Shown one piece after another: positions 1 through 52,429 of a stretch of DNA of 64,000 nucleotides. The DNA lies in NCBI GenBank assembly GCA_950097015.1, contig CATNEN010000009.1, positions 1,364,001 through 1,428,000 of the forward strand, read 5' to 3'. This DNA comes from Macrostomum hystrix. Its lineage: Eukaryota > Animalia > Platyhelminthes. The notes beneath the pieces were generated by a model. That model made no database searches. It worked only from the letters and a program-made list of their open reading frames with translations, and was not told the origin of the DNA. Each line of letters begins with the position of its first letter. Position 1 is the stretch's first letter. The position numbers were made by a program, and so were the translations under genes.

Positions 1-92
1 ACTTGGACTTTTGGCAAATAAAGTGGAACTTGTACTTGAACTTGAACTTGGTTAAGTTAAAGCCTTAACTTTGACTTGCCTTTCTCCTTCAG

Positions 93-791
93 ATACTGCA
101 GTACTTTCCTGATCAGGGATACTGCCTTTATCGGCACGGAGTAGGCAGTTGTAAACAACTGCTCAGAGCCTTGGGCAGGCCTGCCGCCCCAGCCGCCCCT
201 GCCGCCCCTGCCGCTCCTGCCGTGCAAGCCCCAACGCCTGCTGCAAGGGCGTCTGGGGCACTGAATCAAGCACTCCAGCACTTCACACTTGCAGCCGGAG
301 AACACTTTGGCGGACTGCTTCCGCCATTATCACAGCCGGTAGCAGAAATGCTACGGGCTGTGATAATGTGTCTGGAAAGGCGTGACGCTAAACGGCTCCT
401 TTGTCTGGCAAAGGCCACTGCCGAGGTAACGGCGCTGGCAATTGGTGCTGCATCAGTTGACCTCGCGGAGGCCCCTCCTCATCCCGCCAACGCCGATCCC
501 GCCGACGCCGATCCCGCCGACGCCGATCCCGCCGACGCCGATCCCGCCGACGCCGATCCGGCCGATCCCGCCGACGCCGATCCGGCCGATCCCGCCGACG
601 CCGATCCGGTCGATCCCGCCGTTCCCGCCGCCATACCACCGGACCACTTTCGCGGGGCCGGTCCCGGCCCGTCGGCGGTAGCGGAGGACGAGGAGGAGGA
701 CGAAGAAGAAGAGCAGCAGCCGAGGGCCAAGAGGCAATGCGTGAAAAAGGCTGCCCCTAAGAAGGCTGGCCGAAGGAAGCGACGTCGCTAA
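93..791 (+). CDS. Terminal exon of a low-complexity protein (DPADA repeats, acidic tract, basic NLS-like C-terminus)
   Basis: Acceptor TTCTCCTTCAG at 82-92 opens an uninterrupted frame (ILQYFPDQGYCLYRHGV...) continuous with track ORF 171..791. 15-bp GCCGACGCCGATCCC repeats; ends KKAAPKKAGRRKRRR*. The upstream exon lies outside the window. Confidence 0.55.
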   Translation: MLQYFPDQGYCLYRHGVGSCKQLLRALGRPAAPAAPAAPAAPAVQAPTPAARASGALNQALQHFTLAAGEHFGGLLPPLSQPVAEMLRAVIMCLERRDAKRLLCLAKATAEVTALAIGAASVDLAEAPPHPANADPADADPADADPADADPADADPADPADADPADPADADPVDPAVPAAIPPDHFRGAGPGPSAVAEDEEEDEEEEQQPRAKRQCVKKAAPKKAGRRKRRR

Positions 792-1034
792 ACTATTTAT
801 ATATATTTTTTATTATCTGGCGCCTTTTCCTTTTGCGACAATACGCATTTATTATTATTTTATTATTTTATTTTTTTATACCATAAATCTAGCCAGTCTA
901 TGGACCAGGAGGGAGCCCAGCCTGTGTGGCGTCCTTAGTAACCGGCCCCTGGAAACAGCATCCGGCATTCCAGCATAAGTCAACTTAGTGAATTAGTTTC
1001 ATTGTTTTGTTATTTAGTTGTCATGGACTGATTG

Positions 1035-2135
1035 GCCCCAAACTGAGAATTTGGGATTGTCACCAAACTGAGGGTCTGGGATAATTGTCATTAAACTTAG
1101 GATCTGGGATTGTCACCAAACTGAGGATCTGGGATTGTCCCAAACATAGGATCTGGGATTGTCACCAAACTGAGGGTCTGGGATAATTGTCTTTAAACTA
1201 AGTTTTAAAATTTTATATATTGTTGTATCATTGTATATAAATCGTATCGTATCAATGTTGTATCATTGTTGTTTTGTTGTATTAGTGTTGTATAAATCTT
1301 ATGATGTGCTGTAGACTGCTGAGCAGCCTCCAGGCAATCTGAGAGTCAGGCTGTTCTAGGTCTGTGGAAGGGCTAGGGTTGGTAGTTAGTGTTTCCCGTG
1401 CACTGTCACTTCCGCTCGCCACCCCCCTCCTCTCTCGTTCTCTTGTTCCAGCTCTGTCTGCGCACTGAGTCACATTGCACACCATGGTGCAATCGCTTAA
1501 GTTCGGAAGAAGACTGGCATTACAACGCTCAAATGCTCCTACTATAAGTAGAGCACAGTCCGACGAATCCTTGAGATCGTGTTAGTGCCGTGGTAGCACA
1601 ACTTCTGTATGAATATGGCACGTTTCTTGTCTCCAGTCTTCATGCCGCTCGGAACCGTTTGTGCTTACATTCTGTGTCCATTCTTTTGGCTCTAAGATCT
1701 TAGACAATTCTTGTTGGTCTAGGTCACACACTGCATTTAGAAGCTTGGTGTGTCACCCGATCAAGCATAAGATCTGAAAGTTTAGCTAGGACGTGGACTA
1801 AGTAGAAGAGGTCACGGGAGAACTTAGCTGTCTAAGCCTGACTACCGGATTGTTCCTCTGCTAGGAAGCATCTGAGTGTGAGGCCGGATACTCTCTCTCT
1901 CGGAATCTAGTTCCTGTCTTGGTTATTTTTACCAATTGTGTGTGCCACGCTACCACAGGTACAACACTTAGTTCATTTCATTGTTTAAAACTTTTTATCT
2001 AGGGGGTTATCACTAATCTGGGATTGTCCCAAACTGAGGATCTGGGATTGTCACCAAACTGAGAATCTGGGATTGGCACCAAACTGAGGATCTGGGATTG
2101 TCACCAAACTGAGGATCTAGGATAATTTTCATAAA
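1035..2135 (+). repeat. 25-bp tandem repeat (GGGATTGTCACCAAACTGAGGATCT) in two blocks, ~1035-1200 and ~2015-2135
   Basis: Repeat units read directly; the blocks lie on either side of the solo LTR. Confidence 0.85.
1286..1966. mobile_element. Solo LTR (BEL/Pao- or Gypsy-type), 681 bp
   Basis: Starts TGTTGTA and ends TACAACA (7-bp inverted termini, TG...CA). Flanked by ATTAG / CTTAG, a 5-bp TSD with one mismatch. More GC-rich than the flanks and has no ORF. Confidence 0.7.
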
Positions 2136-2356
2136 CTAATCTTTAAATTTTTATTTATTGTTGTATCATTGTTGTTGTTACCTCATTTTCTTTCTGCTCT
2201 CTATTGCGTATCCCTCCGGTGCTTTTTTTTGACAAGAATGTGCTTTAGTTTTTTTTTCAAAATAAAGAAAGAAGTGCTGTGCAAATCTATTAGTAAGTCA
2301 TTTGTCGATTTCTTTTCTTGCAGATGCGACCTGCTCTTCGACTTGAGCAGATCGAC

Positions 2357-2475
2357 ATGAGTAGAGTGGGGCGAGTGGAGTAGAGTGGGGGAGTGGAGTA
2401 GAGTGGGGGGAGTGGAGTAGAGTGGGGGAGTGGAGTAGAGTGGGGGAGTGGAGTAGAGTGGGGGGAGTGGAGTAT
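2357..2475 (+). repeat. Purine-rich ~20-bp tandem repeat (GAGTGGAGTAGAGTGGGGG)
   Basis: About 5-6 units visible. Confidence 0.85.
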
Positions 2476-2606
2476 TGGGTTAAGCAAAGACTAACTGAGT
2501 GTGGGTGGCCAATTGTAAGCCGAAAAGTACTATTATGACAGATTGACTAACTACTTTCTATATTTGGATGAGAGATAGGCAGTATACTCTAAATTTATAC
2601 TCTAAA

Positions 2607-2952
2607 GTATACTCTAAAGAAATGTGCGTGCGCTGTATTTTCGCTGGAAGCAGTGCGACGATTTCGGGCTACAGGACGACCACAGGACAACGCTGCAGCT
2701 AGTGGTGATTCTATTTTTAGCAAAGTGCAATTTTCTTAAGAGTATAGACGTGGCTCGTGTGCATTCAAATGGCAGCCATACAAGTCTATGTGACAAGTCC
2801 GTATACTCTTAAGAAAGGTGCGCTTTGCTAAAAAATGAACCGCCCGGGGTTTCCCCGTGCAGCGGCAAGCTAGCAAGCCATCCCGGCTAGGCCATATGCC
2901 GACAAGGTCAAGTAGCGAAAAAACAGCTCGCGCACCTTTCTTAAGAGTGTAT
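2607..2952. repeat. Four-motif inverted-repeat / long hairpin cassette, copy A
   Basis: Motif TATACTCTTAAGAAAGGTGCGC occurs forward ~2607, reverse ~2725, forward ~2801, reverse ~2930; the middle pair forms a long hairpin. Confidence 0.75.
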
Positions 2953-4361
2953 AAATGCATACATGCATGCATGCACTACACCAACCACACCAACTAAGCT
3001 CTTGGGACGGAAGAAAATTTTATCACTGACATGATAAAATTCTTTAAGTCCGGAAACTCTAGTTTATTCAAATATGCAATTATATAGATGTCAGAGGGCT
3101 GCTATATGTGATGGATGTCGATTCGCAAACTGACTTGGCTGTGAATAGAATCAAATGCTGATGTTTGTTGATGGTGGTATTTTTGCGAAAAGTGTATTCA
3201 TAGTTCATGCATATTCATGAATTAAGGTATTTTCGCAAAAATACTGATATGTTCTTATACGAAGGTAAGGGCAGTATTTTTGCAAAACGTTCCTGAAGTA
3301 GCGTGGCTACATATAATGGTACTTTCGCGAAAATACATATGTATTCTCAGATATAGTGTTTTGTCTTCTTACTGCCAGAAAATTTACTTATATTTAATAT
3401 GCAATAGTACGAGTACTAAAAGTAGTGCTGCTTGCTATTTCTGTTAGTATTTTTGCGAAAATACATACGTATTCTCAGACGAAGTGTCTTGTCTTTTTAC
3501 TGCCGTACTTGCACTCCTTTATAGCACCTTCCAACTCCGCGGCGGCGGAGGCCTGGACGCCCGGACGACGCCGGGCGGAGGTGGCCATGGCCGCAGCAAT
3601 AGCTGCGGCCGACGTAATCGAAATCGATCAGTCTGATATATATATTCAATTAAAGTTTATACAAGTTTCTCATGTAAAAAACATTAATAAAAACGGATAA
3701 GTTTGAAAAAGTAAAGTACAAACGACTAATAAATTATTATACGCCTTCGTCTCGCTAGATATGCCAAGATGGACAATTAAAACTTGCAAACTGGGTATGT
3801 AGTGCATTAAATCGTGCGTATATTAACATAGACATTTCTGCTTGGTACAGCTCGATTTTTTCGCGTTTTTTTCTTCGTATCCACATTTCTTCTTTCGAAA
3901 ATACAGTCAGACGTTCTAGGCCATAGACACAAAAAATGACTGCATATAATTCATGTTGTATGCAGTATTTTTGCAAAAGTTATTGAAGTAGCGTTGCTAT
4001 ATCTTAGGGTATTTTCGTGAATGCAGATACGTATTCTCAGACAAAGTGGCTTGTACTTTTTAACATAGACACATTTAGTAAAATTCTGCTAATTGCGAAA
4101 ATTCATGAATGAATTTCATACAGACATTAAAAAAATAAGACAAGCTGGTTACCATAGACTATAGCGGCGCTGATAAATTGAGGTTTCAATGAAAAATATG
4201 CTTTTTAGACGGTATTTTCGCGAAACACCATCTAAAAAATCTAAACCATCTAATTTCGCGAGCCAGACATTTCAACTATAATTAGTATTTGCGCACTGCC
4301 AAATTTTTTTCGCGAAAGCACATACGTATTCTTAAGTCAAAACGACTATGATCGTTGACTA

Positions 4362-5733
4362 CTTCGGGTGTCCGGAAAGTCATGAGAATGTGTTATTCTA
4401 ACTACTTAGACACAAGCTATTGACAAGATACTGTACCATTCTAACACTTGACTTAATATATGTCTATGGCTGAAAGAGCTAGATTCTTGCTTCAAATTTG
4501 GGGGTAAGGCTGATGGTTATAACTTAGAAGTCTAGGCCACTGCAACGCAGAGGCAAAGCAAGCATCTATCGTTACTTTTTTCTTCATTGATCCTTGCTGC
4601 TGCTTTGAGATGGACGAGTTTCAAGCTTATGCTTATACCAGGTATAAGCTTGGTATATCTGCTCCTGATTGCCATGGAGAACTGCTGAAAGTGCATGGAG
4701 ATGTGGCGCCTGGTCTGTCGTCAGTGTACCGATGGTACACAAGGTTCCGTGACGAGTCGTACCCACTGGCCCAAGCTGCCCGTACTGGCCGGCCGAGATC
4801 GACGAGAACACCAGAGCTGATCGAGACCTGCAGAAATCTCGTGAAAGAAGATCCAAAAGTGAGTGTCAGAGATCTTGCTGACTTCATGGAGGTTGGGAAA
4901 TCAACAGTGCATGAAATATTGACTGAAGACCTGCAACTTCGCAATGTGTCTGCCGTGTGGGTCCCGCATGTTCTCTCCGAGGAGAACAAGGTTGCTCGCG
5001 TCAATTTTGCCAAGCAAATACGTCGGATTTTTCATACCGAGGGCATGACCAGCTTCTGCAACAAGTACGTGGTGGAGGACGAGACGTGGGTGTACCTTAA
5101 AAACACTGGTACACGGCAGAACAACCGGTGCTGGCTGGGTCAAGGCGACCATCGACCTCAAGTTGTGAGACACTCAGTCGGGGACCCAAAGACAATGCTG
5201 GTAGTCGCTTTCACCCCAAGCAAGCGATTCTCTATCATGTCAACGGCGCCAAAGCAGACTGTTGATGCCAATCGCATCGTTGAATTCGTTCGACACACAG
5301 GTGACCTATGGCGGAGCCTCAGATCACAGCCAATTCATCTGTCCGAAGTCTTGTGGCAGTGGGACAACGCACGACCTCATGTGGCCCAGCCTGTGCAGCA
5401 GTACATGGAGACTCGTGGAGTTCAACTGCTTTTTCAGAGTCCCTACAGCCCTGATTTCAATTTATGCGACCGTTTTTTCTTCAATTGGCTGAAATCGAAC
5501 TTCTCGAAGCGGGAGTTCAGCAGCCACGATGAGGTCCGCGAGGCCGCGTTGCAGTGGGCGAGGGGTCTGGATGCAAACTGCTTGAAACGCGAGGTTCTAC
5601 GGCTCGTGGAGCACTGCCAAGCTGTGATTGACTTCAGGGGAAATTACATTACTGATTAGTAAAGTTTCACTGTTCTGCGCGTTTTTATAATTAACCTTTT
5701 GTAGTTTTCTCATGACTTTCCGGACACCCGGAA
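4362..5733 (+). mobile_element. Full-length mariner (Tc1/mariner, DD34D) transposon, 1372 bp
   Basis: 27-bp TIRs CTTCGGGTGTCCGGAAAGTCATGAGAA (4362-4388) and TTCTCATGACTTTCCGGACACCCGGAA (5707-5733). TA duplicated at 4360-61 and 5734-35. A paralogous empty site ATCGTTGAC-TA-CTTGAGATTTG lies at ~31289-31310. Confidence 0.95.
4610..5659 (+). CDS. Mariner transposase, intact, 349 aa
   Basis: N-terminal HTH region, WVPHVL motif, EDETWV (D1), WDNARPH (D2), YSPDFNLCD (D3, exactly 34 residues after D2). Confidence 0.95.
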   Translation: MDEFQAYAYTRYKLGISAPDCHGELLKVHGDVAPGLSSVYRWYTRFRDESYPLAQAARTGRPRSTRTPELIETCRNLVKEDPKVSVRDLADFMEVGKSTVHEILTEDLQLRNVSAVWVPHVLSEENKVARVNFAKQIRRIFHTEGMTSFCNKYVVEDETWVYLKNTGTRQNNRCWLGQGDHRPQVVRHSVGDPKTMLVVAFTPSKRFSIMSTAPKQTVDANRIVEFVRHTGDLWRSLRSQPIHLSEVLWQWDNARPHVAQPVQQYMETRGVQLLFQSPYSPDFNLCDRFFFNWLKSNFSKREFSSHDEVREAALQWARGLDANCLKREVLRLVEHCQAVIDFRGNYITD

Positions 5734-7597
5734 TACTTGAGATTTGTGCATAATGTGGCAGTGGTAAAAAGGTAAGAAGGCTCTTATGGAAGACAGCATC
5801 GTCACACCGGACTGCTATACAGTAACTCCAACACATTTCACTAGCATTTGTAGTGTAGTGGGTCGGAGTTACTGTGCCGTGGTTCACATACTGCGACATG
5901 TCACATAGTGGTTGATATCAATTGTCAATTTGACGTTGTACATCGCATAGCTGCTCGTGCCAGTGTCACCTTGACGTTGTACGTCTGCGCAACGCAAAAT
6001 ACAGCAATATGTTGCATAGACGTACAATGTCGAACTTGACATTGCCTATGCAAGTCTCAACCGCAGGAGTGTTATGTTCTCCTGGTATGTTCTCATTCTC
6101 CCACTGTCTTTCGACTATCTTTTGTTCCTAAAATGTTGAAAGGGGGGGTCTGGTCCAGCCAAGCCCCAGCCAAGGCCCCAGCAAGACCAAAACGGACCTC
6201 TGTTGTACGTGTATTCTAAATCGGTGCGTGTTTTCCCCAGAGACGACGACCCTAATTGGGATAGCCTATATAGAATGTTCAATATTTAGAAATACACTAC
6301 GGAGATCAAAAAAGGTCATTCGGCTTTTTGCGACTGGCTTGCATGCCGTCCATGGTTAGCAGTGTGCTACTACTTACAGCCATACACGTGTGCAAGAAAT
6401 ACACTAAGGAGATCAAAAAAAAGGTCTTTCAGCCTTTTGCGCTACGCATGCCTGCTATTAGTAGTAGGTATAGCAGTGCAGAAACTGGCGAGTCAGTGAG
6501 TTGCAGCTAGAAGAATCTGCGAATTTGGATTTCGGCATTGGTTTTTGGCTTTGGATGTTTGATCGCTTTCTTCGAACTGATCTAAACTGATCGTTCCAAC
6601 AAAAGCACTCTGGTACCATTCATTGATGTGTTACTTTCGCGAAAACATAATTGGAGGATAGTGAAATCGAGGGAGAGTGAAGAGAGGATCAGATCGAAGG
6701 AAGGAAGGAAGGGGAGGAAAGCGAAGGTAGGTTGACTGCACAGATTTTAGATTTGCAGAATGTACGACTGATTCATTGTATTTATTGATTCATTGTACTG
6801 ATGTGTTACTTTCGCGAAAACATATTTGGAGGATAGTACAGGAGGAAAGTGAAAGCGAGGCAACGTGAAGAGAGGATCAGGGTAGATCGAAGGAAGGAAG
6901 AAAGGAATGGGAGGAAAGCGAAGGTAGGGGAGGAAGCTAGGACAGAGTGAAGGGAGAGAGTGAGACACCACCACCTACCCAACCAGTAGCCTCGTGCAGC
7001 GGCAAGCCAGCCCGGCTAGGCCCTATGCCGACGACGTCAAGTAGCGAAAAAACAGCTCGCGCACCTTAAGAGTATATATATATACCTGCATAGCATTTAC
7101 GACTACTACTACTCGTACTACTCCACCAGCCACACCAACTAAGCTCTTGGGACGGAAGAAAATTTTATCACTGACATGATAAAATTCTTTAAGTCCATAA
7201 ACTCTAGTTGATAAAAATATACAATTATATAGATTTTAGAGGGCTGCTATATGGGATGGATGTCGATTCGCAAACTGACTTGACTGTAAATAGACTCAAA
7301 TGCTGATGATTGTTGATGGTGGTATTTTCGAGAAAAGTGTATTTATAGTCGATGCAAATTCATAAATTAAGGTAATTTCGCAAAAATACTGATATGTTTG
7401 CAAAACAAAGGTAAGGGCAGTATTTTTGTAAAACGTTCCTGAAGTACTCTCTATATTCGCTCAATAAATCTTATTCTGTTAGAAAAAAATTGCAATAGTG
7501 ATCAAGATTTCCCCATTTTCAGACAAAAATCATTAAAAATCCAACACCCGAAAGAAAATCAATCTAAATAGCCAGATAACACACCGTTCAATTGCAT

Positions 7598-7674
7598 GTG
7601 ATCTGGCGTGCAGGTCTAAAGCATTCCTATCTTTCCTATCTAGTACCAGTGGCTCGGTTTCGTTCCCAGTCAGC
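7598..7674 (+). ncRNA. tRNA-derived Pol III-type unit (pseudo-tRNA / SINE-like head), copy 1
   Basis: A-box-like TGGCGTGCAGGTCTAAAGC at 7604 and B-box-like GGTTTCGTTCCC at ~7656. Homologous copies at 10270-10345 (+) and ~40095-40175 (-). Confidence 0.4.
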
Positions 7675-9359
7675 ATAAAAAAATCAGCAAATAATTTACT
7701 ACTAATGAAATTAAATGTTTATTACGAGAATATATGTATTTTTTATACTCGTATCCCCAATTTCTGTGGACCCCATTATTACTAACGTACGTTTGCTCGA
7801 ATACGGCAGTTACCTTCTTTTGATAATGCCTTTATTTTCATTTTGGACACATATGTCTATTGCAAAAATACATACGTATTTTCAGACAAAGTGTCTTGTC
7901 TTTTTACTGCCGTACGTATGCAAATAAACCTGAGATTGTGCGGCTACAGTAGCCGGCACATATTTGCGAAAGTACAAATGTGTCTTCAAACAATATTAAA
8001 TGCATAGTTGCGCAATAGTACTTGAAGTAGTGCTGCTTGCACCTGAAGTAGTAAAGTATAACGCGAAAGTAATTGAAATAACATGGCAAGACTATATACT
8101 TGTGATAGTTTAGATGGTATTTTCGCGAAATAGTCATAGACATTTCAACGATTAGTACTTAGTATTAGTACTCGTACTTAGGAATATTTGCTCAGTGGCA
8201 AAAAATATTTTGCTGAATAATATTCATAAATGAATTTTCGCGAAAAAGTTTTGTTCCTAAAATGTTGAAAGGGGGGGTCTGGTCAAGGCAAAGGGGTGTC
8301 TGGTCCAGCCAAGCCCCAGCCAAGGCCCCAGCAAGACCAAAACGGACCTCTGTTGTACGTGTATTCTAAATCGGTGCGAGTTTTCCCCAGAGACGACGAC
8401 CCTAATTGGGATAGCCTTTATAAAATGTTCTATATTTAGAAATACACTACGGAGATCAAAAAAAGGTCATTCGGCTTTTTGCGCGCTACTATTTACAGCC
8501 ATAGACGTGTGCAAGAAATACACTAAGGAGATAAAAAATGTCTTTTCAGCTACGCATGCGCCTGCTGTAAGTAGTAGCTATAGCAGTGCAGAAACTGGCT
8601 AGTCAGTGAGTTGCAGCTAGAAGAAGCTGCAAATTTGGATTTCGGCTTTGGTTTTTGGCTTTGGATGCTTCAGTTTCTTCGAACTGATCTCAACTGAAAA
8701 GCACTCTGGTACCATTCATTGACGTGTAACTTTCGCGAAAACATAATTGGAGGATAGTGAAATCGAGGGAGAGTGAATAGAGGATCAGATCGAAGGAAGG
8801 GGAGGAAAGCAAAAGTAGGTTGACTGCACAGATTGTAGATTTGTACTGATGTGTTACTTTCGCGAAAAAATATTTAGAGGATAGTATACAGGAGGAAAGT
8901 GAAAGCGAGGGAGAGTGAAGAGAGGATCAGGATCATCAGATCCTGAATCAGAATCCAGAATCCTGAATCCAGAATCATCAGATTAAAGGAAGGGGATCAG
9001 GAAAGCGAAGGTATAGGGGAGGAAGCTAGGACAGAGTGAAGGGAGGATATGCAGAGAGTCAGACACCACCACCTACCCAACCACCTGCACTCTGCATCCA
9101 CCCACCCAAATTCGTACGACTGATTCATTGTAATTATTAATTCATTGTACTGATCGATGTCTTACTTTCGAGAAAACATATTTGGAGGATAGTACAGGAG
9201 GAAAGTGAAAGCGAGGGAGAGTGAAGAGAGGATCATCAGATTAAAGGAAGGGGATCAGGAAAGCGAAGGTATAGGGGAGGAAGCTAGGACAGAGTGAAGG
9301 GAGGATATGAGAGTGAGACACCATGCACCACCTACCCAACTTGCACCTGCACTCTGCAT

Positions 9360-9510
9360 CCACCCACCCAACACCACACACCACACCACCCCACACACCA
9401 CCCACCCAACACCACACACCACACCACACCACACACCACACCACACCACACACCACACCACACCACACACCACACACCACACCACACCACACACCACACC
9501 ACACCACACC
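9360..9510 (+). repeat. (CACCACAC)n-type simple repeat
   Basis: Read directly; explains the HTTP/VWCG pseudo-ORFs. Confidence 0.9.
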
Positions 9511-9633
9511 CTGCAGCAGCACTCCAATTATAAGAGTTTATGGACTTAGAGAATTTACAATCAGTAAATTCTCGACCGTCCCAAGGCTTAAATAGTGTAG
9601 TGAGATCGGGGCGGGATAGAGGGAGCCAGTTAG

Positions 9634-10010
9634 TATATATTCTAAAGAAAGGTGCGCGCTGTACACTTTCGCTGGAGGCAATATGATCGACGGAGATTAT
9701 ATCTAGATCGGGCTTGATGACGACTAGTTACTAGATGACCGAAAATGCATGGTGTTTCTATTTTTAGCATAAGGCGCACCTTTCTTAAGAGTATATACTG
9801 GCTTGCGTGCCCCATAGACTTCAATAGGCTGCCATTTAAATACACACGAGCCAGCTGGTATATATATACTCTTAAGAAAGGTGCGCCGTAGGCTAAAAAT
9901 AGAATCGATGAATCGCCCGGGGTTTAGCCAGCCCCCATATGCCGACGACGTCGAGTAGCGAAGTCAAGTTGCGAAAAAACAACTCGCGCACCTTTCTTTA
10001 GAGTATATAT
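9634..10010. repeat. Four-motif inverted-repeat / long hairpin cassette, copy B
   Basis: Motif forward 9634-9658, reverse 9773-9797, forward 9863-9887, reverse 9985-10010. Arms ~9756-9812 and ~9845-9905 are reverse-complementary around a ~33-nt loop. A truncated third copy lies at ~6990-7085. Confidence 0.8.
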
Positions 10011-10269
10011 ATATACCTGCATGTATAGCATTTAACAGCCACCAGCCACACCAACTAAGCTCTTGGGACGGTCGAAAATTTTATCACTGACATGATAAAA
10101 TTCTCTAAGTCCGTAAACTCGAGTTTGAAATTATTTGGATGTCAGAGGCCTATTTGCTATGGAGGTCGATTTGCGAAGGGCAGTATTTTTGCAAATGGTA
10201 AATCATGAGAATACAACATGCGAAAGAAAATCAATATAAATAGCCAGACAACACACTCTTTAATTGTTA

Positions 10270-10352
10270 GTGAACTGGCATGCAGGTCTAATGCATTGTC
10301 GCTAGTACAAGTGGCTCGGGTTCGATTCCCATTCACCCCAACGCATTTTTTT
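10270..10352 (+). ncRNA. tRNA-derived Pol III-type unit, copy 2, followed by an oligo-T run
   Basis: TGGCATGCAGGTCTAATGC (A box, GCA/TGC D-stem), GGGTTCGATTCCC (B box), GTGAA/TTCAC acceptor-like pairing, TTTTTTT about 10 nt downstream. Confidence 0.45.
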
Positions 10353-10874
10353 ATTTAAAAAATGGGCAACATTATACTAGAAATGAAAATAAATTTTTAC
10401 TAGGAATCTGTTTTTTTTATATTGGAATCCACACTTTTTGTGTGGATCCCCATTATTATTAATGTTGACTTACTACTGCAATATTACTTATAGTAGTGCC
10501 GATTGCACCTGAAGTAGTAAAGTATACTGCGAAAGTAATTGAATTAACATGGCTAGTCTATATACTTGTAACGGTTTTTTCGCAAAAAAACTAACATGGC
10601 TAGTCTATATACTTGTAATGGTTTTTTCGCGAAATAGCCATAGAAATTTTATCTATTAGTATTTGCGAATTGGGGATTGCAATACACACGAGTGAATTTT
10701 CGCGAAAAAAGTTTTGTCTGTAGTCAAACCTAGAACTACAGTTGAGTACAGTCGCAAAAGTGAGCTATGTAAGACTGAGCGCGCTTAACATCTACTTTGT
10801 GACCGACTGACTGACCGACCGAGCGATCAACCACATTTACGAGTTAATTCCTACGCCTCGACTTCAAGTTTGAA

Positions 10875-11147
10875 ATGTCAGCATTTCGTGGCCGTGGAAA
10901 GAAGGCTCGTGTGGATGCCAGCATTGCTACATCGGATTCTAATGGTCTACGCCAGACTAGGATCGTGGACTACTTTAGATCTGAGCAGTCAACCGATCGT
11001 CCTACTGGCAACTCAATTAGACCGAGTGGGCAAGCAGCATCGGCATCATTCGCAGCACTGGCAGGAACGGCTGGCCGGGCATCGGCTGCCTTCAATGTTC
11101 CCCGCCGTGCAGCAGTAATACAGCAGCAACAGCAACCGCAGCAGCAT

Positions 11148-11186
<39 letters not shown>

Positions 11187-41524: not shown

Positions 41525-42392
41525 CACATGAGATGCATATGCCAAACAGATGCCAGACATGCCAATGCCAGACACAATGCCAAACAGATGCCTGACATAT
41601 GCCAATGCCAGACACCATGCCAAGCAGATGCCTGACATATGCCAATGCCAGACACAATGCCAAGCAGATGCCTGACATATGCCAATGCCAGACACCATGC
41701 CAAACAGATGCAAGACAGACGCCAGACAGATGCCGATGCCAGACACAATGCCAAACTGATGCCAGACAGATGCCAGACACTATGCCAATGCCAAACAGAT
41801 GCCAGACAGACGCCAGACAGTAGCTAATGCCAGACACCATGCCAGACACTATGCCAATGCCAAACAGATGCCAGACAGACGCTAGACAGATGCCAATGCC
41901 AGACACCATGCCAGACAGACGCCAGACAGATGCCAATGCCAGACACTATGCCAAAAAGATGCCAGACAGACGCCAGACAGATGCTAATGCCAGACACAAT
42001 GCCAGACACCATGCTAAACAGATGCCAGACAGACGCCAGACAGATGCCGATACCAGACACAATGCCAAACTGATGCCAGACAGATGCCAGACACTATGTC
42101 AATGCCAAACTGATGCCAGACACATGCCAGACACCATGCCAATGCCGAACAGACGCCAGACAGATGCCAATGCCAGACACAATGCCAAACTGATGCCAGA
42201 CATGCCAATGCCAGACACAATGCCAGACAGACGCCAGACAGATGCCAATGCCAGACACAATGCCAAACTGATGCCAGACACATGCCAGACAGATGCCAAT
42301 GCCAGACACAATGCCAAACTGTTGCCAGACACATGCCAGACAGATGCCAATGCCAGACACAATGCCAAACAGATGCCTGACATATGCCAATG
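41525..42392 (+). repeat. Degenerate ATGCCA/GACAG satellite
   Basis: Continuous mosaic of ATGCCAGAC, ATGCCAA, ACAG; explains the many MPD/WH pseudo-ORFs. Confidence 0.9.
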
Positions 42393-42559
42393 CGAAGTGA
42401 GTTTGATTTAGTCGCTTCAATTAGCTTGCAGCCATAGACGGTGAATTCAATATAGTCGTTTTTAGCGCGCGCAACGAGATCGTGATTTTTATTTAGTCAA
42501 AGTGAAATGAATACGGTCAACGAGATCGTAAACTTTCATAAAAGGCGCAAAAACACATA

Positions 42560-42650
42560 AGATGTGTAAGATGTAAGATGTAAGATGTAAGGTGTAAGAT
42601 GTAAGATGTAAGGTGTAAGGTGTAAGATGTAAGATGTAAGGTGTAAGATG
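42560..42650 (+). repeat. (GATGTAA)n heptamer repeat
   Basis: Read directly. Confidence 0.9.
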
Positions 42651-42873
42651 CAATGGCAGCACACAACTAGTGACCTAGCCGGTTCGTCGGCTAGTACCCA
42701 GTTGTCAAAATAGTTATTGTCTATGGGGCCAATTGTCTAAATTGTCTAAATTCGCAACTGCAAACTTGAGTTTAAATTCGACTGCAAACTGCAAACAGCA
42801 GCAGCCACTTCATCGTCCAGCCAAGCATCAGCCAAGAGCATCATCAAGAACTGCGGCAGCAACACCACCAACA

Positions 42874-43823
42874 ATGAAGGTAGAGGAAATCGTTCAGCGG
42901 GGCCCGGAAGGCGGCGTAATTGAGCCGGCACCTGTCGGGGCCAATTTCGTTTGCCCAGATGGCAAATTTGCCATCTGGGTAAACATGGAAGGCAGACCCG
43001 CACAGGTGCGGGATAGGCTGTGCCCATGCCTTCTGGGCGCGGGTGGTCCGGCGGGCGGCAAGAGGCACGCCCCGCAAACATACCAATACTCTGGCGGGAA
43101 CGCCGTAAGTACTCATCCTATGTTAATATTTTCCTTCCCTGCCACTTGCTCTCGCTCTCTCGCTTTCGCTTTCGCTCTCGCTCTCGCTTTCGCTCTCGCT
43201 TTCGCTCTCGCTTTCGCTCTCGCTCTCGCTTTCGCTCTCGCTTTCGCTCTCGCTTTCGCTCTCGCTTTCGCTCTCGCTTTCGCTCTCGCTTTCGCTCTCG
43301 CTTTCGCTCTCGCTTTCGCTCTCGCTTTCGCTCTCGCTTTCGCTCTCGCTTTCGCTCTCGCTTTCGCTCTCGCTTTCGCTCTCGCTTTCGCTCTCGCTTT
43401 CGCTCTCGCTTTCGCTCTCGCTTTCGCTCTCGCTTTCGCTCTCGCTTTCGCTCTCCCTCTCTCGCTCTCTCGCTCTATGTCGCTCTCGCTCTCGCTCTCT
43501 TGCTGACCTGAGAGCTGTATCCCGCCCATTCCATTTTAATCCAGAGGATGTACTGGCGCGTGGGTGCCCGCTGCATTCTGTGGACCCACGGGGTGGAACT
43601 GCGTGGGAGCGACCTTCGCAATCTGCCTGCAATCGTGCAGGGGTCGGTCGCCCCGCAGCTGGACCGGCGTGAGGCAGCGCAACAGCATCAGGCGGCAGCG
43701 GTCGCCGACGTGCTGGGTGAGGCGCAGCAGCGTCGGGCGGCAGCGGTCGTCGACCGCCTGGATCCAGCGCAGCTGCGAATAGTGCTGCGGAGTTTGGTAG
43801 CAGTGCCACCAGTTGGTAAGTGA
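42874..43823 (+). CDS. Putative two-exon hypothetical protein, ~169 aa
   Basis: GC-rich exons 42874-43104 and 43545-43823 join in phase 0 (AACGCC|GTAAGT...TTTTAATCCAG|AGG). The intron holds the (CTCGCTTTCGCT)n repeat. The final GTTG|GTAAGT could be another donor. Confidence 0.5.
43148..43500 (+). repeat. (CTCGCTTTCGCT)n 12-mer microsatellite in an intron
   Basis: Read directly. Confidence 0.95.
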
Positions 43824-44037
43824 TGAGTAACTGAAATTGCCGTGTAACTTCTAGTGAACGTCGTAAATGGCAATTAGTAATCACTAGCAGAAATGAACGC
43901 CTTGAATTGTCTAATCCATGGAAATTCCATCCAAAGAATTTCATCTGTAAAATCGATATAATGATCCCCCATATTTTATTTTTCATTCGTCCAGTATATA
44001 CTTATTAGCAGCTGTATTTTCAGATTTTTAAAAGCTA

Positions 44038-44820
44038 CAATGATCCCCATGCAGTAGTTGACAATGATCCCCCAGTTGACAATGATCCTCCAGTTGACCA
44101 TGATCCCCCATTTGATGATAATCCCCATTGATGATGATCCCCAGTTGACAATGATCACCCAGTTGACAATGATCCCCAAGTGGACAATGTTCCCCCAGTT
44201 GATAATGGTCACCCAGTTGACATTGATCCTTCAGTTTACCATGATCCCCCATTTGATGATAATCCCCATTGATGATGATCCCCAGTTGACAATGTTCCCC
44301 AGTTGACAATGATCCGCCAATTGATGATGATCACCCAATTGACAATGATCCCCCAGTTGATAATGGTCACCCGGCTGACAATGATCCCCCAGTTGACAAT
44401 GATCACCCAGTTGACATTGATCCTTCAGTTGACCATGATCCCCCATTTGATGATCATGCCCATTGATCATCCCCATTGATGATGATCCCCAGTTGACAAT
44501 GTTCTCCCAGTTGACAATGATCCCCCAGTTGATGATGATCACCCAATTGACAATGATCCCCCAGTTGATAATGGTCACCCAGCTGACAATGATCCCCCGG
44601 TTGACAATGATCCCCCATTGGACAATGATCCCCCAGTTGACCATGATCCCAAATTTGATGATAATCCCCATTGATGATTGATGATGATCCCCAGTTGACA
44701 ATGATCACCCAGTTGACAATGGTCACTCAGCTGACAATGATATTCCAGTTGACCATGATCCCTCATTTGATGATTAATCCCCATTGATGATGATCCTCAG
44801 TTGACAATGTTCGCCAGTTG
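44038..44820 (+). repeat. GATGATCCCCAGTTGACAAT-type ~20-bp tandem array with higher-order structure
   Basis: Dozens of related units. Confidence 0.9.
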
Positions 44821-44954
44821 AATTTTTATATTAGCTGCTTTTGTAGAAAATTGAAAAGAACAACATTAAATGAATTAAATGAATATCATTATGACGTTAT
44901 AAGATAACAAAATCAAAATATAGAGAATTTGATTCAATGACAAAAGAAAAATTA

Positions 44955-45190
44955 TGACATGATTCAAACTCTGGTTTTGCCATGATTCAAACTCTGGTTT
45001 TGCCACGATTCAAACTCTGGTTTAGCCATGATTCAAACTCTGGTTTTGCCATGATTCAGACTCTGGTTTAGCCATGATTCAAACTCTGGCTTTGCCATGA
45101 TTCAGACTCTAGTTTAGCCATGATTCAAACTCTGGTTTAGCCATGATTCAAACGCTGGTTTTGCCATGATTCAAACTCTGGTTTTGCAAT
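44955..45190 (+). repeat. 23-bp tandem repeat CATGATTCAAACTCTGGTTTTGC
   Basis: About 10 units plus an isolated copy at ~45380. Confidence 0.9.
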
Positions 45191-45688
45191 GATCTGCGTC
45201 TTCACTTTCTAGACACATTTAGCTGACTACCAACACTACTACTATCCTTGTCTTAGCTTCAGCTCAAACTACTCAAGCATTTCCGCTCGCTTTGTACATA
45301 TGCGCCCACATTTAATTAGCAAAACACAATAAACACATTCTACTGTGTTTCCTGTGTTTTCTGCGTCTTCACTTTCTAGATTCAAACTCTGGTTTTGCCA
45401 CGATTCGAAAAATGGGTAAAAGTTAAAAAATATTTAATTTTTTAGCGCAAGCACTGGTGAACGTAGTCGCTGCTGTCGACGCCGCGACCGCCGGCGCCGT
45501 AGCAGCAGCAGCAACAACAGCAGCAGCAACAGCAGCAGCAGCAGCAGAGGAGGAAGAGCCGCCATCGCCGGTCTTCCGGAGGCAGCGGTGGAGTTGTCAG
45601 TAACTTTAACTGTATTTTGCTCGCATTTGGCGAGATTCATTCGCTTTGTGATTGTCTTACTATACCGGATGGGGCTTAGTTATACCAG

Positions 45689-46243
45689 GTGGACCGGAAT
45701 CCGACCTACCTAAAATCCACCCACAAAAAATCTCACCTAGCTGATTCCACGGGACTCCTTGCGGCCGGCACCGCAGCCGACACCGCGGCCGACACCGCAG
45801 CCGACACCGCGGCCGACACCGCAGCCGACACCGCGGCCGACACCGCAGCCGCCGTCGCTGCTACCGCGGGGCCGCCGTTTGCGGCGTCAACGCCCCTGTC
45901 GGCGCGGCGGACGCATACGCCGCCGCCGCCGCCGCCGACACAGCCGCCGCCCCCGCCGTTGACACCGCCGCCGCCGCATCCGCCGACACCCCCGCCGCCG
46001 CCGCCGCCGACACAGCCGCCGCCCCTGCCGTTGACACCGCCGCCGCCACATCCGCCGACACCCCCGCCGCCGCCGCCGCCGACACCGCCGCCGCCGCCGC
46101 CGCCGCTGACAAACAAGCAGAAGCGGAAGCTTCAAACGCAGCCGGCGAGGGATGCCCTGGCTGCAAAGCGGAAGGTAAACCCGCAACTTAACTACGCGCT
46201 TTGTAGCTACGAGTTGTTTTCTGGCATTCTCGCAGGTCTCTGA
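45689..46243 (+). CDS. Possible low-complexity protein/exon (AADT repeats, polyproline, basic tail)
   Basis: GC-rich open frame made mostly of repeats; no domain recognised. Confidence 0.25.
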   Translation: MDRNPTYLKSTHKKSHLADSTGLLAAGTAADTAADTAADTAADTAADTAADTAAAVAATAGPPFAASTPLSARRTHTPPPPPPTQPPPPPLTPPPPHPPTPPPPPPPTQPPPLPLTPPPPHPPTPPPPPPPTPPPPPPPLTNKQKRKLQTQPARDALAAKRKVNPQLNYALCSYELFSGILAGL

Positions 46244-46667
46244 GGGGCAACGCGTGCCTCGCGGAAAGTTCATACTTGTCAGGCTCTCCGATTGGCTCAG
46301 GGTACCGGACATTTGAAAAAAACGCAAAATGCAAACCCATTGGTCGTTATGAGTGATTCAACCCGGCACCTGGAAACTGACATATTCAGTTTGTATTTTA
46401 ACTATCAATTTTTATGAGCCAAACAAACCCTAAAAGCGGACTCCCAATTAGCAAGACATCAGCTTTAGCTTATGGCAATTATAATGTAATCATACATTAT
46501 GTTACAGAATGTAAACTTTTAGTAAACCAACATTTCAGAAGTAACAACAAGTGGACAGCAGTGGACAACAAGTGCAACACACAAGTCCATAAGTCCACTC
46601 ATTTTGTTCATTTTTTGTTCATTTTTATCTTCTTAAGAAAAAACACATAAACACATAAGAACACTTT

Positions 46668-47200
46668 AGTGGCGTAGCCAGAAAAAAATACAGGAGGGGG
46701 CCTAAGGCGGACGGGTTTTTAGTTCAGGCGGGGGCCTCTCTCTTCTCTCTTTCTCTCTCTCTGCGCTCTCCATTCTCTCTCCAAGTCTAACTCTCCATCC
46801 TCTCCCTGCACGCTCTCTCCATTCTCACTCCATTCTCTCTCTGCACTCTCTGTCTCCATTCTCTCTCTCCATTCACTCTCTGCACTCTCTCTCCATTCTC
46901 TCCCTGGACGCTCTCTCCATTCTCTCCCTCCATTCACTCTCTGCACTCTCTCCATTCTCTCTCTCCACTCTCTCTCCATTCTCTGTCTGCACTCTCTCTC
47001 CATTCTCTCCCTGCACGCTCTCTCCATTCTCACTCTCCATTCTCTCTCTGCACTCTCTCTCCATTCTCTGTCTCCATTCTCTCTCCAAGTCTCACTCTCC
47101 ATCCTCTCTCTCCTCTCTCCTCCCTCCTCTCTACTCTCTTTCCTACGCCTGAACTAAAAAGCCTGAACTTAGGCCCCTAACTGCCCTCCATGGCTACGTC
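46668..47200. mobile_element. MITE-like element with AGTGGCGTAGCCAG terminus and CT-rich interior
   Basis: Left AGTGGCGTAGCCAG..GGGGCCTAAG..TTTTTAGTTCAGGCG mirrors right CGCCTGAACTAAAAA..CTTAGGCCCC..TGGCTACGTC. Confidence 0.6.
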
Positions 47201-48557
47201 GGGGGGATTTAATTTTTATACTCATTTAATACTTTTTTTATGGGTTATACAAATTTATAGAAACTTGATACATATTTTATACAATTTTATACAAACTTTT
47301 ACAATTTTATACAAACTTATACCATATTTTTGTTTTTTGGGGTGGGGGGTTCGTTGGAGCATTGTCAGTGTCGGGCTTGCAAAAAGCATGTACGCATGTA
47401 CCTAGACACTGCTTGTGTTCTAGCGGACACCCTTGCCCCGTTGCTCGTCATTCCCTACGTTTATTCCCTGCCCTTCCCGAGGCAATTGACATTTTTAGCC
47501 ATCATGAACTGTGAAGTTTGTTTTTTGAACTTGCCAAATCTGTCAGGTCATGTTTCAGGATCCTGGACACCTCGTGGATGCCTGGCCAGAGAAATGTAAA
47601 AGTTGCGGGGCGTTTTTCTCAAGTCGATCGAGGACTGAAAGAGCTTTCTTTGACACCAAGTGCAGCTCGATTGACCCATCAGAAGTGCCCCGATCGGCCC
47701 CGATAGTGAAGCTAATCGAGTATTGGCATCGAATTTCGGCTATAAATCAATCAGACGACTTGAAGTCCAAGCAACTAGACGCGTCCATCGAGTGGATTCC
47801 TCCATCAAACAGTAGGAGCCCAGTTTTCCGAATTTTACCCGTAACTTTTTTCGGCGACCTCCCCCAGTCTTCGGAGTAGCGTCAATCAACTCGGCGCAAC
47901 GAATTCTATCGGAAAAAGTTGTCCCGCAATATGGGTAAACAAAAATTTTTTTCGCAAAAAATATAATGACTTCTAAATAGAAAGCAAATGTACAGTATTT
48001 TCGCGAAAAGACTGATATGTTCTTAAACGAAGGAAAGGGCAGTATTTTTGCAAAAGTTCTTAAAGTAGCGTGGCCACATCTTATGGTATTTTTGCGAAAG
48101 TGCATGCGTATTCTTAGACGACGTGTCTTGTACCTTTTTCACCACAGACACATTTAGTATTTTTGCAAATTGCCAAGAGTCATGCATGTATTTTTTTCGC
48201 GAAAAGACTATATACTGTGTACTATATTGAATACTTATGAGTGAAAAATAATGGCAGTTTTTGCCAGAATACTAACGATACGATGACGAATATATTTTTG
48301 CGAAAAAATGTGTTCTAAAACGAATACAAAATGCTGCATTTGTGTGAAAGTACTTTGAGTACTAAAATACAAACAAGAATGCTTAACGTAGTGTGATGAT
48401 TGTTGGTGATGGTATTTTCGCAAAAAGATTAGTGTATTTTCGATCACTTACAAAACAACACCAATATGTAAATCAAATAGTTAAGATAATCAGAAGCTTT
48501 ATAAAATAACTGTAACTAATCATAATGAATGTATTATTTTATAATATCATTTCAAAC

Positions 48558-48767
48558 TTAGGCCTCCTCAATTGCAATCGCTACTGCTGCTGACGCCTCC
48601 GCCTCTTCAGCTGCGGCATACAATAGGTCGTCATCAGCAGGGTCAAATGTACAGCTACTGGCTGCCATCGCTGCTGCTGCTGCTGCTGCTGACGCCTCTG
48701 CCTCTTCAGCTGCGGCATACAATAGGTCGTCGTCAGCTGGGTCAAATGTACAGCTACTGGCTGTCAA

Positions 48768-48802
<35 letters not shown>

Positions 48803-49079
48803 ACGCCTCTGCCTCTTCAGCTGCGAAATACAAAAGCTCATCGTCAGCTGAGTCTAAGCAATTGACTGCCATCGCCGCTTCGACCTCTTCAGCTACGGCG
48901 TATAACATTTGGTCATCTGCCAGGCCGAATACATAGCTATATGATGAATTGTATGTTTCATCATACCCGTAATCATCATAGCCTGGCTCTTCGTTCAGCC
49001 CAACGTCCTCGTCGTGACAGTTGGATGTTTCCGCATCGTTTAGAGTTGGCGCTGATGATGATGATGGTGTTGCAGGCAT
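48558..49079 (-). CDS. Acidic repeat protein, 173 aa, copy 2
   Basis: Paralogue of 15008-15661 with 3 repeats plus 1 degenerate repeat and longer poly-Ala linkers. Confidence 0.7.
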
Positions 49080-49313
49080 GGCGAGACAATGGGGGCAGTA
49101 TTTAAAATGTTGAACTTGTTTTATTTACTTCATTAATTGTCCAAAGTTTAAACTGCATTGATTACATATTCCCAATCACATAAGATTATCAGCAAGCTTG
49201 TTACCATAGACTAGCAATATGGTTTTTAGTTGGTTACTTTACTAAGGTAAGTGGCGTAACTTATTTACACATTTTAGATTCTTAATTATTATTTCAAATA
49301 AAAAAACTACAAC

Positions 49314-49760
49314 ATGTCATCCCTGGGTGGGCGGCACAATGGCGGAGATCAACGAGATATCGACAGAGAGGATCACAACTCTGGCAACGACAAACCGATC
49401 TCGTGCCCTACCGTCAGTAGCAGCACAGATGTCGTGATTGGCACTGAGCGACGTCGACGAAGGCACAGCTCGGATAGTAGTTCAGACTCGGATTTTGCTA
49501 TTCTGCCTTCACGTCAACGTGTTCAGTACGTATGGCATCGTCCAGGTGTCGTGCGCATTTACAATCAGAGATTTTCTATTGTGAACGCCAATCCGACACG
49601 GGATTTAGCCGGCCAATTGCAACTGCCGCAGCATGCGCAAGTGACCGATATACAGTCACCAATTGTAATCAGTAGCAACAACAATGGCGGCACTGGCACT
49701 GAAAGAGAGCGCGGCAATGAAAATCGTGCTGCTAATAACTCAGATTTGAATGACATGTAG
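49314..49760 (+). CDS. Hypothetical protein, 148 aa, copy 2
   Basis: Paralogue of 15897-16355. Confidence 0.6.
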   Translation: MSSLGGRHNGGDQRDIDREDHNSGNDKPISCPTVSSSTDVVIGTERRRRRHSSDSSSDSDFAILPSRQRVQYVWHRPGVVRIYNQRFSIVNANPTRDLAGQLQLPQHAQVTDIQSPIVISSNNNGGTGTERERGNENRAANNSDLNDM

Positions 49761-50254
49761 CAATTCTTTTGTTAAGCACTGTTGCCATTAGTTATAATGA
49801 AATTAATTAACTGATTAGTATAATTAAAAGTTGAAGGTATTTGATTAACACATCTGAGTATTCAATGTCGACAGTGCATGATGCCTGCAAATGTTTTAAA
49901 CTACTTTTACTTTCACTAGCTCTCGTTCACTTACGTGGTATATTCAAAGCATAAGACAGTTTGCCGTCACTATCACCATTAACCACAATCAGATGACTGA
50001 TGAGATCAGTCAGTAAATAAAATATTAATACGCGAACACACATGTGTGCAGTTAGTCAATCGGTTTTTATTAAATTTCACCAATATAATTAAATACTCCA
50101 TACATATATATACAATTTCATTAATTAAACAAATAATTAATCGTGTTATTCTACAATTAGTCCGATTTGCAAAGTCGCAAGAGCAAAAAGAAATGTGTAA
50201 ACTATATATAATACATAAAATTCTGATTCTGTATTCTGATTCTGTACCAGCATA

Positions 50255-50641
50255 ATGGCAAGCAGCAGCAGCAACAACAGCAGCTTTTATTTGTTCCCGG
50301 CGCCATTCCAGGCATTCGTTCTTGCCTTCGCTGCCGAGGAGTTGGAGGATCACTGAGGAAAGCGAGTGAGGCAGCGAGTAAGGTGGCGGCAGCGGAGGTC
50401 GGGACGCCGGGACGGCGCCGGGCGGAGGATGTGATGGCCGCAGCTATGCGGCGGGTCCGAGCGGCCATGCTACGCATGGCCAGGGCTCGCCGCATAGCTG
50501 CGGGGCTTGACCCCTATGTAAGTAGTAACTTTCGATTATTATTTTAAATTGAATATTTGCGATAACACATCTGATAACCAAGCTAACAAACTAAATGAAA
50601 CCTAAAACCCATCTTTCATCCCGCAGCCCGGTGTACTGTGA
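50255..50641 (+). pseudogene. Frameshifted paralogue of the 17496-17858 gene
   Basis: LFPAPFQAFVLAFAAEELED then TGA; shifting the frame by one base restores LRKASEAASKVAAAEVGTPGRRR...AMLRMARARRIAAGLDPY. Donor and micro-exon are retained. Confidence 0.65.
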
Positions 50642-52199
50642 TCTGTGAGCTGCGACTAATATCAGCACATACGATACGATGAGAGTGATAGTGTCCGGTG
50701 TGTTAGTGTATTGTGTATGCGCCAAAGGACAAAGGAAAAGACAAATGACAATTTGAAACTATGAGCTCTTATGTGCTCTTTCAAAGGACAATGTGCTCTT
50801 AGATTAAAAAAATATAAATATATAAAAAACAAAAAAGACATTGTTCGTTATAGTTTTCACAATACACAACTTCTTATCTTGGTTACTTATTTTATCATTA
50901 GAATAATATTCATTTTTAGTATATAAGAAATGAACTGACTGGTGGTTATGTGGTGTACATTGGCGTTGAGACTTACTAGAAGACCGACGCAATAGTAATC
51001 GATCAGTCTGATATATAATATCAAGTTAAGTTTATACAAACTTTTTCAGTAGAAAATAAAATAAGAATAATGACGGAAAAGAGAACATATGCTCGATTTT
51101 TTCGCGATTTTTTTTCTTCGTATCCACATTTTTTCTTTCGAAAATACAGTCAGACGTTTTTGGCCATAGACACAAAAAACGGCTGCATATAATTCATATT
51201 GTATGCAGTATTCCTTTTCTCAACCTATCTCAGCCTACGAGCATCCGAACTCAGCTACCCATAGAAATCAATGGTGGCAAAGATGGGGGTTTGGCCCATA
51301 GACTCTCTTCGTGACAATCAAACTCAGCAGTGAGCAACCAAACTCAGCCATATTCGTTTTCCCTTGCATAGCAGACCATATTTTGTAATTTTTAAACACT
51401 CGATGCCTCTTAGAGCAGAAAGCACAAGCTAAATGCTCAAAGTTGGTTGACTTAATTAAGTTCGACAGTTTTTCATATTTTCGTCTGTTTCCATGTCTAC
51501 TATATCTTAATTTTCGGCTCTTTTGGTTGTATCTGCAGCCCCTACAGAGAGTGTCTATATAAAGATACAGTATTATATCTGCCCCACTACTCCGCTACTC
51601 CTTATCAGATCCACATCGCCCGGTAAAAAATCAAACATTCCCTAAGAAGGAAGGGGAAGAAAGCAAGGTGATATGAAACCCGAGGGTGGTCAGAAGACAA
51701 GAGAATATTAATTATTGTCGCCTCGATCATTTTCGACCATTTCTACCTGTGGCGAGTAGCTGGGGGATGGCAGGAGACTCGGAGGAGTTAAAAATCATGC
51801 CGAGGGAGCGGACTGCAGATTGGGCGAAGTCATTTTGCTTCCTTCTTACTCGAATCTTTGGGTGGCGGCAATGGTGTGTCGGTGGGGCGAGAGCGACAGT
51901 CAATTGACTGATTTGACTGCCTGGCTGACGGTTGACGTCAGCTCAATATAGAAATTCTGCTCAATTTCCATCTAGGTTTGCGCAGTTTTCACCGTCTAAG
52001 AGTGCACGGATAAAAGTGCAGTTTTTTTCGTTTAACCATGTGTAAATCTATTCGATTACAACCATAAAAGTAATGATTCTGATTGGCTAATAATTCGAGA
52101 ATCGAACTGATATTCGTCCGAAAAATATCAGCAAGATTTATAGCAAGAACCGTCCTAAATCGGTCGTCAGGACCCCAGATTGAGACTCGGAACTATTGA

Positions 52200-52400: not shown

Positions 52401-52429
52401 TGCTTCGTAGACAGAGTAAAACGCAGATT

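Follow-up and report, generated by a model that had tools for sequence, protein, structure and literature searches.

A candidate capsid-less DNA element with a tyrosine recombinase gene and a helicase-like gene in Macrostomum hystrix

Contig CATNEN010000009.1 of Macrostomum hystrix carries, in the 64,000-nt stretch analyzed here (the window, to which all coordinates refer), a gene for a zinc-finger (ZnF) protein with a tyrosine recombinase (YR) fold and a gene for an AAA+ ATPase that likely belongs to helicase superfamily 3 (SF3). We find it somewhat probable, from comparisons at the sequence level, that the region is a rearranged, transposon-littered copy of a multi-copy, capsid-less DNA element in which the ZnF YR would integrate and excise the element and the likely SF3 helicase would start its replication. 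An earlier note on the same DNA had described positions 1-51212 as a single giant integrase-plus-replicator element of 51 kb. The proposed link between recombinase and helicase is supported by common modules, arrays and a palindrome, but the element is smaller than described, with a net core of about 24 kb and a truncated second copy.

The recombinase and helicase-like genes

The YR gene lies on the minus strand at 36421-39491 and is predicted to encode 955 amino acids in three exons (39491-38876, 38784-37934 and 37821-36421). The model follows consensus-like splice sites; GT/AG pairs allow 40 frame-compatible combinations, of which it is one. Four homologs, 41, 43, 36 and 26% identical to the YR, came from a search of 1.84 billion representative proteins. 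The homolog P0001 aligns as far as exon 2 extends (E 3e-12) and then runs gap-free into exon 3, and because this alignment crosses the junction without a gap, intron 2 is supported. In the homolog P0002, ten residues are missing where the two exons meet, and the comparison suggests that a homolog may have an intron at that position, too. When the five-row alignment of the family was compared with a profile built from 55 bacterial YR domains, it matched at 84% (E 7.8e-6) over 112 columns; none of 50 column shuffles reached this score, and the reversed alignment gave no match. The match brings the box II Arg and the catalytic Tyr into register, and all 5 rows of the family alignment share the Lys. 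The putative active-site residues are Arg at 37509 (alternatively 37515), Lys at 37401, Arg at 37155 and Tyr at 37056. All four (R, K, R, Y) are found in the YR, and K, R and Y are retained in the 26%-identical homolog. As judged by these comparisons, the ZnF gene encodes a YR fold with R-K-R-Y, for which catalytic activity is predicted at most. The intron-containing ZnF-YR gene of the earlier note is thus borne out by the profile match and by the homolog that spans predicted intron 2.

Neighbors of the YR in the ESM Atlas were found at 0.94-0.95, one set of which has PF00589 in 17% of its members. The YR exon gave nothing in the word-index protein search and no match in the phage tblastn search, PDB sequence searches were uninformative, and the fold search with a single-sequence AlphaFold model of the YR returned generic helical bundles only, the single-sequence models being poor (predicted local distance difference test scores of 36 and 35). 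The xDxR motif of the YR was considered as a mark of a protelomerase or of TopIB, which found no support: profiles of protelomerases (41 sequences) and of TopIB (5 of 6 loci), both shallow, gave no match. In a control for depth, YR profiles reduced to six sequences still gave E values of 1e-4 to 0.08 (10 draws). Separately, lambda int (L083-L114) was 99-100% identical across many unrelated bacterial assemblies, probably a contamination with laboratory lambda DNA.

The helicase-like gene lies on the plus strand at 10875-13608 and is predicted to encode 861 amino acids in two exons (10875-12815 and 12964-13608), with an intron at 12816-12963; no other GT/AG pair in the tested ranges keeps the frame. 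The protein has a low-complexity basic/acidic N-terminus, a middle domain with no family match, and a C-terminal AAA+ ATPase, and exon 2 holds the AAA+ P-loop, with Walker A at 13135 and Walker B at 13267. Further motifs at 13360, 13411 and 13456 are read by eye as an SF3-like B', motif C and an Arg pair. Two SF3 families, PF00910 (E 0.004) and PF19263 (E 0.015), cover the ATPase domain end to end, although both stay below the cut-off. Against a profile of 33 Rep SF3 domains (from 124 viral loci), the ATPase matched at 95%, a score reached by none of 60 shuffles, and the DnaA control matched at 96%. By its sequence the gene product is an AAA+ P-loop ATPase and likely belongs to SF3. The intron-containing SF3 helicase gene proposed earlier therefore stands as a two-exon AAA+ gene with SF3-like spacing, while the profile test does not discriminate between SF3 and DnaA.

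The middle domain of the helicase was also considered as an inactive HUH or origin-binding domain. This found no support: the C-terminal half of exon 1 scored 0.3% against 101 Rep endonuclease domains, with 27 of 60 shuffles as high, in a test that could miss a very divergent, inactive fold. The ESM Atlas matches of the middle domain were all below 0.9, and no primase domain was recognized. The phage tblastn search with the ATPase returned DnaA as its sole weak match.

Shared modules, palindromes and extent of the element

The YR and helicase genes are convergent, and a common upstream module stands in the same orientation to each ATG, with 75% identity over 208 nt. Upstream of the helicase gene the module lies at 10200-10465 (plus strand), with another copy at 7443-7871; upstream of the YR gene, sequence comparison places it at 39941-40662 (minus strand), where it is the last element-type module and is cut near 40662. 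Behind each of the two genes stands an array with units of 95-105 bp. In addition, an 8-bp GC box that was noticed after the fact has two copies in the window, at a distance of 80-100 nt upstream of the ATGs of the YR and helicase genes. The two genes are separated by 23 kb, which shrinks to about 10 kb once the nested transposons are subtracted. Inverted 400-bp modules (73-75%) that flank the coding core were considered as terminal inverted repeats (TIRs), but are read instead as the shared promoter module because a third copy is internal. The common upstream module, which agrees with the shared non-coding modules of the earlier note, together with the arrays and a confined palindrome, supports the view that the YR and the helicase belong to one system.

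This 10-bp, element-type palindrome occurs 76 times in the window, compared with 1.07 expected from 30 shuffles, and all copies are within 3181-48416. None falls in the three nested transposons, in 1-2640, in 40650-47940 or after 51212. Because the palindromes are confined in this way, and are absent from the transposons and the flanks, we place the core at about 2570-40662 (38 kb), which leaves a net core of about 24 kb when the nested transposons are subtracted. The three palindromic repeat arrays, already seen in the earlier note, have units of 95-105 bp: array 1 (13890-14540) has about seven units of 97-105 bp with two palindromes per unit, array 2 (33660-33975) about three units, and array 3 (35015-36025) about ten.

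The interval 1-51212 does not hold as a single element, since three ordinary nested transposons take up 14 kb of it and neither 1-2640 nor 40650-47940 has any of the 76 palindromes. Position 51212 is a cut within a module, and because the paralogues of this module at 31198 and 3969 continue further, it is not a terminus. The segment in front of it (47995-51212) is a truncated second copy, 77-88% identical, of the block that comprises an array end and the small open reading frames (ORFs) ORF-A, ORF-B and ORF-C; it lacks ORF-D, and its ORF-C is frameshifted. At 40663-41020, 52-bp repeats with partial inverted copies break up the last element module and may be a miniature inverted-repeat transposable element. 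Behind the cut at 51212, short broken frames (52400-52930) look by eye like a transposase remnant.

The duplicated hairpin cassette reported earlier was also recovered. Its two copies, at about 2700 and 9750, fold with z = -6.7 and -6.8 and have four 21-bp arm motifs each. Cassette 1 (2600-3130), a candidate origin or recombination module, contains a long hairpin, the arm motifs and a perfect, dif/lox-like inverted repeat of two 10-bp arms around an asymmetric spacer of 6 bp, the first copy of a 10-6-10 site (3016-3041, plus strand). A partial cassette at 7000-7190 (plus strand) contains copy 2 of the site (7161-7186), and cassette 2 (9630-10180) contains hairpin arms of 42 bp (9756-9797 and 9863-9904) and copy 3 (10077-10102). 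The three sites (3016, 7161 and 10077) are in direct orientation, with none in 100 shuffles, and lie within a 31-nt run that is invariant in 3 of 3 copies, compared with 190 of 315 invariant columns overall. YR sites have 11-13-bp arms and a 6-8-bp spacer (Kojima and Jurka, PMC3212892), and because its arms and spacer resemble these sites, the 10-6-10 repeat is a candidate YR core site. A further perfect inverted repeat of the form 10-5-10 is found just upstream of cassette 2 (9549-9573). No Rfam family was found at the gathering score.

The YR region is present in 10 public runs of four studies, at least half of its words being found in five, and none of the 10 runs has an RNA source on record. 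Depth was taken from public contigs aligned on 1-18500 only, is not a copy number according to the tool, and is affected by the drop-out of short contigs. The helicase contigs had a depth of 844 in run X1, compared with 69-80 for low-depth contigs, and of 28-33 in run X3, compared with 3.4-6.5. In run X5, from another study, they had a depth of 3-9, with the nested mariner at 27-32; the mariner depth was 27-43 in runs X3 and X5. Contig depth over 1-18500 hints that the block is multi-copy, with about 8-12 near-identical copies of the helicase in each of two runs but 1-2 in the third. An apparent co-variation of the CMC transposon with the helicase depth was set aside because contig drop-out confounds it.

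Accessory genes, nested transposons and flanking sequences

The ZnF paralogue of the earlier note (31993-33471, minus strand) corresponds to the two-zinc-finger domain at the N-terminus of the YR protein, lacks the catalytic domain, and is 41% identical to the YR N-terminus over 97 amino acids (E 9e-19). The four small-ORF families said to be present twice each were all found, with the second copy of ORF-C being frameshifted. The first copy of ORF-A (15008-15706, minus strand) has CxxC motifs and acidic 31-aa repeats. Sequence comparison identified the first copies of ORF-B (15897-16355, plus strand), ORF-D (16866-17246, minus strand) and ORF-C (17496-17858, plus strand), and the second copy of ORF-D (34274-34693, minus strand). 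The dN/dS values were 0.31 for ORF-A, 0.43 for ORF-B (with few changes) and about 0.18 for ORF-D (with synonymous sites near saturation). We infer that the small ORFs are accessory genes under purifying selection.

The three nested transposons are a mariner, a CMC/Plavaka-like transposon and a LINE. The mariner (4362-5733, plus strand) has an intact DDE ORF, TIRs and a TA duplication; its joint (4359-5734) is found in runs X1 and X3, and a paralogous site near 31290 is empty. The CMC/Plavaka-like DNA transposon (17877-23310, plus strand) has TIRs, a TA duplication and two genes with weak matches to Plavaka, DUF4218 and DUF4806. The LINE (minus strand, approximate limits 23665-30900) has an ORF1 with an AlkB-type 2OG-Fe domain and an ORF2 with endonuclease and reverse transcriptase. 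Within it, at 27569-30130 (minus strand), the AlkB-type 2OG-Fe(II) oxygenase domain of ORF1 matches at E 3.5e-25, and an intact endonuclease-reverse transcriptase frame of 1153 amino acids lies behind it.

At the left side of the window, an ORF of 238 amino acids (75-791, plus strand) with Ala/Pro/Asp repeats and a basic C-terminus had no family match and may be cargo or unrelated. It is followed at 1030-2470 by 25-bp repeats split by a 669-bp insert (1298-1966), which we read as a high-copy host repeat; its depth in run X1 is about 8000-11600, and the empty-site joint is present in three runs. Between the core and the second copy, where the surroundings have no element palindromes, are orphan ORFs at 42866-43821 (plus strand), 45887-46314 (minus strand) and 47504-47879 (plus strand). 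Among them are a two-exon candidate whose intron holds a 12-bp microsatellite, and a broken zinc-finger-like frame that adjoins the second element copy. At the right side, a host multi-exon gene (55000-63000, minus strand) has a first exon with a weak Reeler match and resembles ferric-chelate reductase by eye; an intronless PAN/C-type-lectin-like ORF (58057-58851) lies inside it.

Proposed mechanism, alternatives and related systems

In the mechanism that we propose, the YR would excise the element or resolve circle dimers at the 10-6-10 site, and the hairpin cassette would serve as an origin that is opened by the helicase. DNA synthesis would be left to host polymerases, which we propose because no polymerase or primase was recognized. 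The ZnF paralogue may bind the same sites as the YR and regulate it, acting on the array palindromes, and the YR would finally re-integrate the element. The spliceosomal introns would imply nuclear transcription and a long residence in the host.

Several observations weigh against such an element. Neither termini nor a target duplication nor an att pair can be defined from the window, and all copies of the 10-6-10 site are in the left 10 kb, with none at the right end; because of this position, an origin or resolution site fits the repeat as well as an att site does. Both catalytic His residues are replaced in the YR and in the homolog P0004, and the position of the box I Arg is ambiguous, as P0001-P0003 lack the preferred Arg and have an Arg two residues earlier. 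The YR models of Pfam, PHROG and NCBIfam had no match to the YR gene, and TopIB also matched the bacterial YR profile (79%), so that the test shows the superfamily fold rather than a sub-family. In the helicase, motif C has a His in place of Asn, and no homolog was found in word-index protein searches with the middle domain and the ATPase or in the viral-contig locus search. The match to the SF3 profile fell to 0.3% without Walker A, and the profile of circular Rep-encoding single-stranded (CRESS) DNA virus type was dropped as proof of SF3. Because the DnaA control scores as high as the SF3 match and Walker A carries it, SF3 is likely rather than proven.

An alternative explanation is that this copy descends, in deleted or defective form, from a larger endogenous DNA virus that encodes a capsid, either Polinton-like or nimavirus/naldavirus-like, and that the structural genes are in other copies or beyond the window. 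We consider this rather unlikely, although both groups of viruses offer close parallels. Polinton-like viruses (PLVs), which are defined by their capsid genes, include insect-associated members and forms (AHEV_PLV2, CBEV_PLV1 and Gezel-14T) in which a YR is paired with a primase/polymerase-SF3 "end module" near inverted repeats; the repeats have been proposed as recombination substrate and origin, and the size is 15-40 kb (PMC11296320; bioRxiv 10.64898/2026.06.19.733378). The pairing of a YR with SF3 is therefore already known from PLVs (PMC11296320). Endogenous nimaviruses (Majanivirus, Pemonivirus and the 28S-inserting whispoviruses) are integrated in multiple copies in animals, and have YRs with a C2H2 finger, multi-exon YR genes and intron-bearing accessory genes (PMC10871703). 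Moreover, truncated and rearranged copies are already present in the window.

On the other hand, no core ORF of at least 200 amino acids is left unaccounted for. Pfam and PHROG scans, whose libraries are weak for divergent eukaryotic capsids, found no capsid, packaging ATPase, protease, PolB or PIF, nor PIF1, in line with the earlier note, which had recognized no capsid, PolB or PIF1; these absences, like those that follow, concern this copy only. Unlike PLVs, the element has no detectable major or minor capsid protein, A32 ATPase or protease, and no recognized primase/polymerase domain, and it has spliceosomal introns and internal palindrome arrays with no TIRs defined. The Polinton pPolB gave no match. 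Nimaviruses differ in being large viruses of up to 579 kb that keep structural and PIF genes (PMC10871703), while two sets of ORFs or exons (24 and 16) scanned with Pfam yielded no PIF, structural or DNA polymerase core genes here. Viral and metagenome contigs contained no relatives of the locus in the locus searches, and IMG/VR contained none by protein or by the 26-bp 10-6-10 site, which had 0 exact matches. By analogy, the element may work like the integrate-and-replicate module of a PLV, and on the evidence of this copy it does not appear to be a PLV.

A second alternative, which we regard as improbable, is an immobile cluster of once-mobile or domesticated genes that arose by tandem or segmental duplication in the host, with its modules spread locally. 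The many mosaic internal duplications, the second partial copy just 7 kb away, the loss of both catalytic His residues and the lack of ends in the window would all be expected of such a cluster. However, the genes have no cellular homologs in protein searches, the depth ratio of helicase to mariner varies several-fold among runs, R, K, R and Y are retained (K, R and Y even at 26% identity), and the layout is compact and has short introns and site-like palindromes.

A third alternative is that a Crypton-like YR transposon and a separate Rep/E1-like helicase element of the PIVE/PEVE type came to lie side by side by chance or nesting. Each kind is known alone. Cryptons encode a YR, lack TIRs and have been proposed to pass through a circular intermediate, and the word "helicase" is absent from the paper that describes them (PMC3212892); unlike Cryptons, the element has no DUF3504 or GCR1_C match, has non-canonical residues at the His positions and has arrays, and the modules of the YR are also those of a linked ATPase gene and five accessory families. 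Planarian PEVE/PIVE and Hydra DENSOV_HM are capsid-poor animal elements built around a helicase of the parvo/papilloma type, for which the available text mentions no YR (PMC3198968), and no HUH domain was detected in the present element. Although the YR and helicase genes are separated by 23 kb (about 10 kb net of the nested transposons), chance adjacency is quite improbable, as one upstream module precedes both ATGs, one array type follows both stops, and the accessory families are spread between the two genes.

Returning to the capsid-less element, a more specific form of it is an intron-bearing "integrative episome" of animals, with a His-less ZnF YR acting at a dif/lox-like 10-6-10 site, a hairpin origin, an SF3 initiator, host polymerases and accessory families; we put this forward tentatively, as a possibility that is more doubtful than not. 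Related systems are the Starships, which are treated together with Teratorn in PMC10175614, and the yeast 2-micron plasmid (PMC3212892), both of which are large or episomal eukaryotic systems run by a YR. They differ in being fungal, and the element has no Pfam match to DUF3435 (E up to 10, with the HMMER filters limiting weak matches). Neither Starships nor the 2-micron plasmid is known to have a helicase of its own. A full-text literature search, with Repbase, Dfam, subscription journals and supplements outside its scope, found no capsid-less, spliced animal element with a YR and SF3.

The animal YR elements in the literature compared here fall into two kinds, the small Cryptons and the full viruses (nimaviruses and PLVs). 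If the reading as a capsid-less element is true, a spliced element with a YR and a helicase would bridge Cryptons and the YR-bearing viruses, and would show how an integrating DNA virus can turn into a purely vertical, self-amplifying nuclear element. The window also offers a testable pair, a divergent YR without both catalytic His residues and a perfect candidate core site. If the "integrative episome" is true, it would be an animal counterpart of the logic of bacterial integrative and conjugative elements and of the yeast 2-micron plasmid, and would supply a new eukaryotic site-specific recombinase along with its target site.

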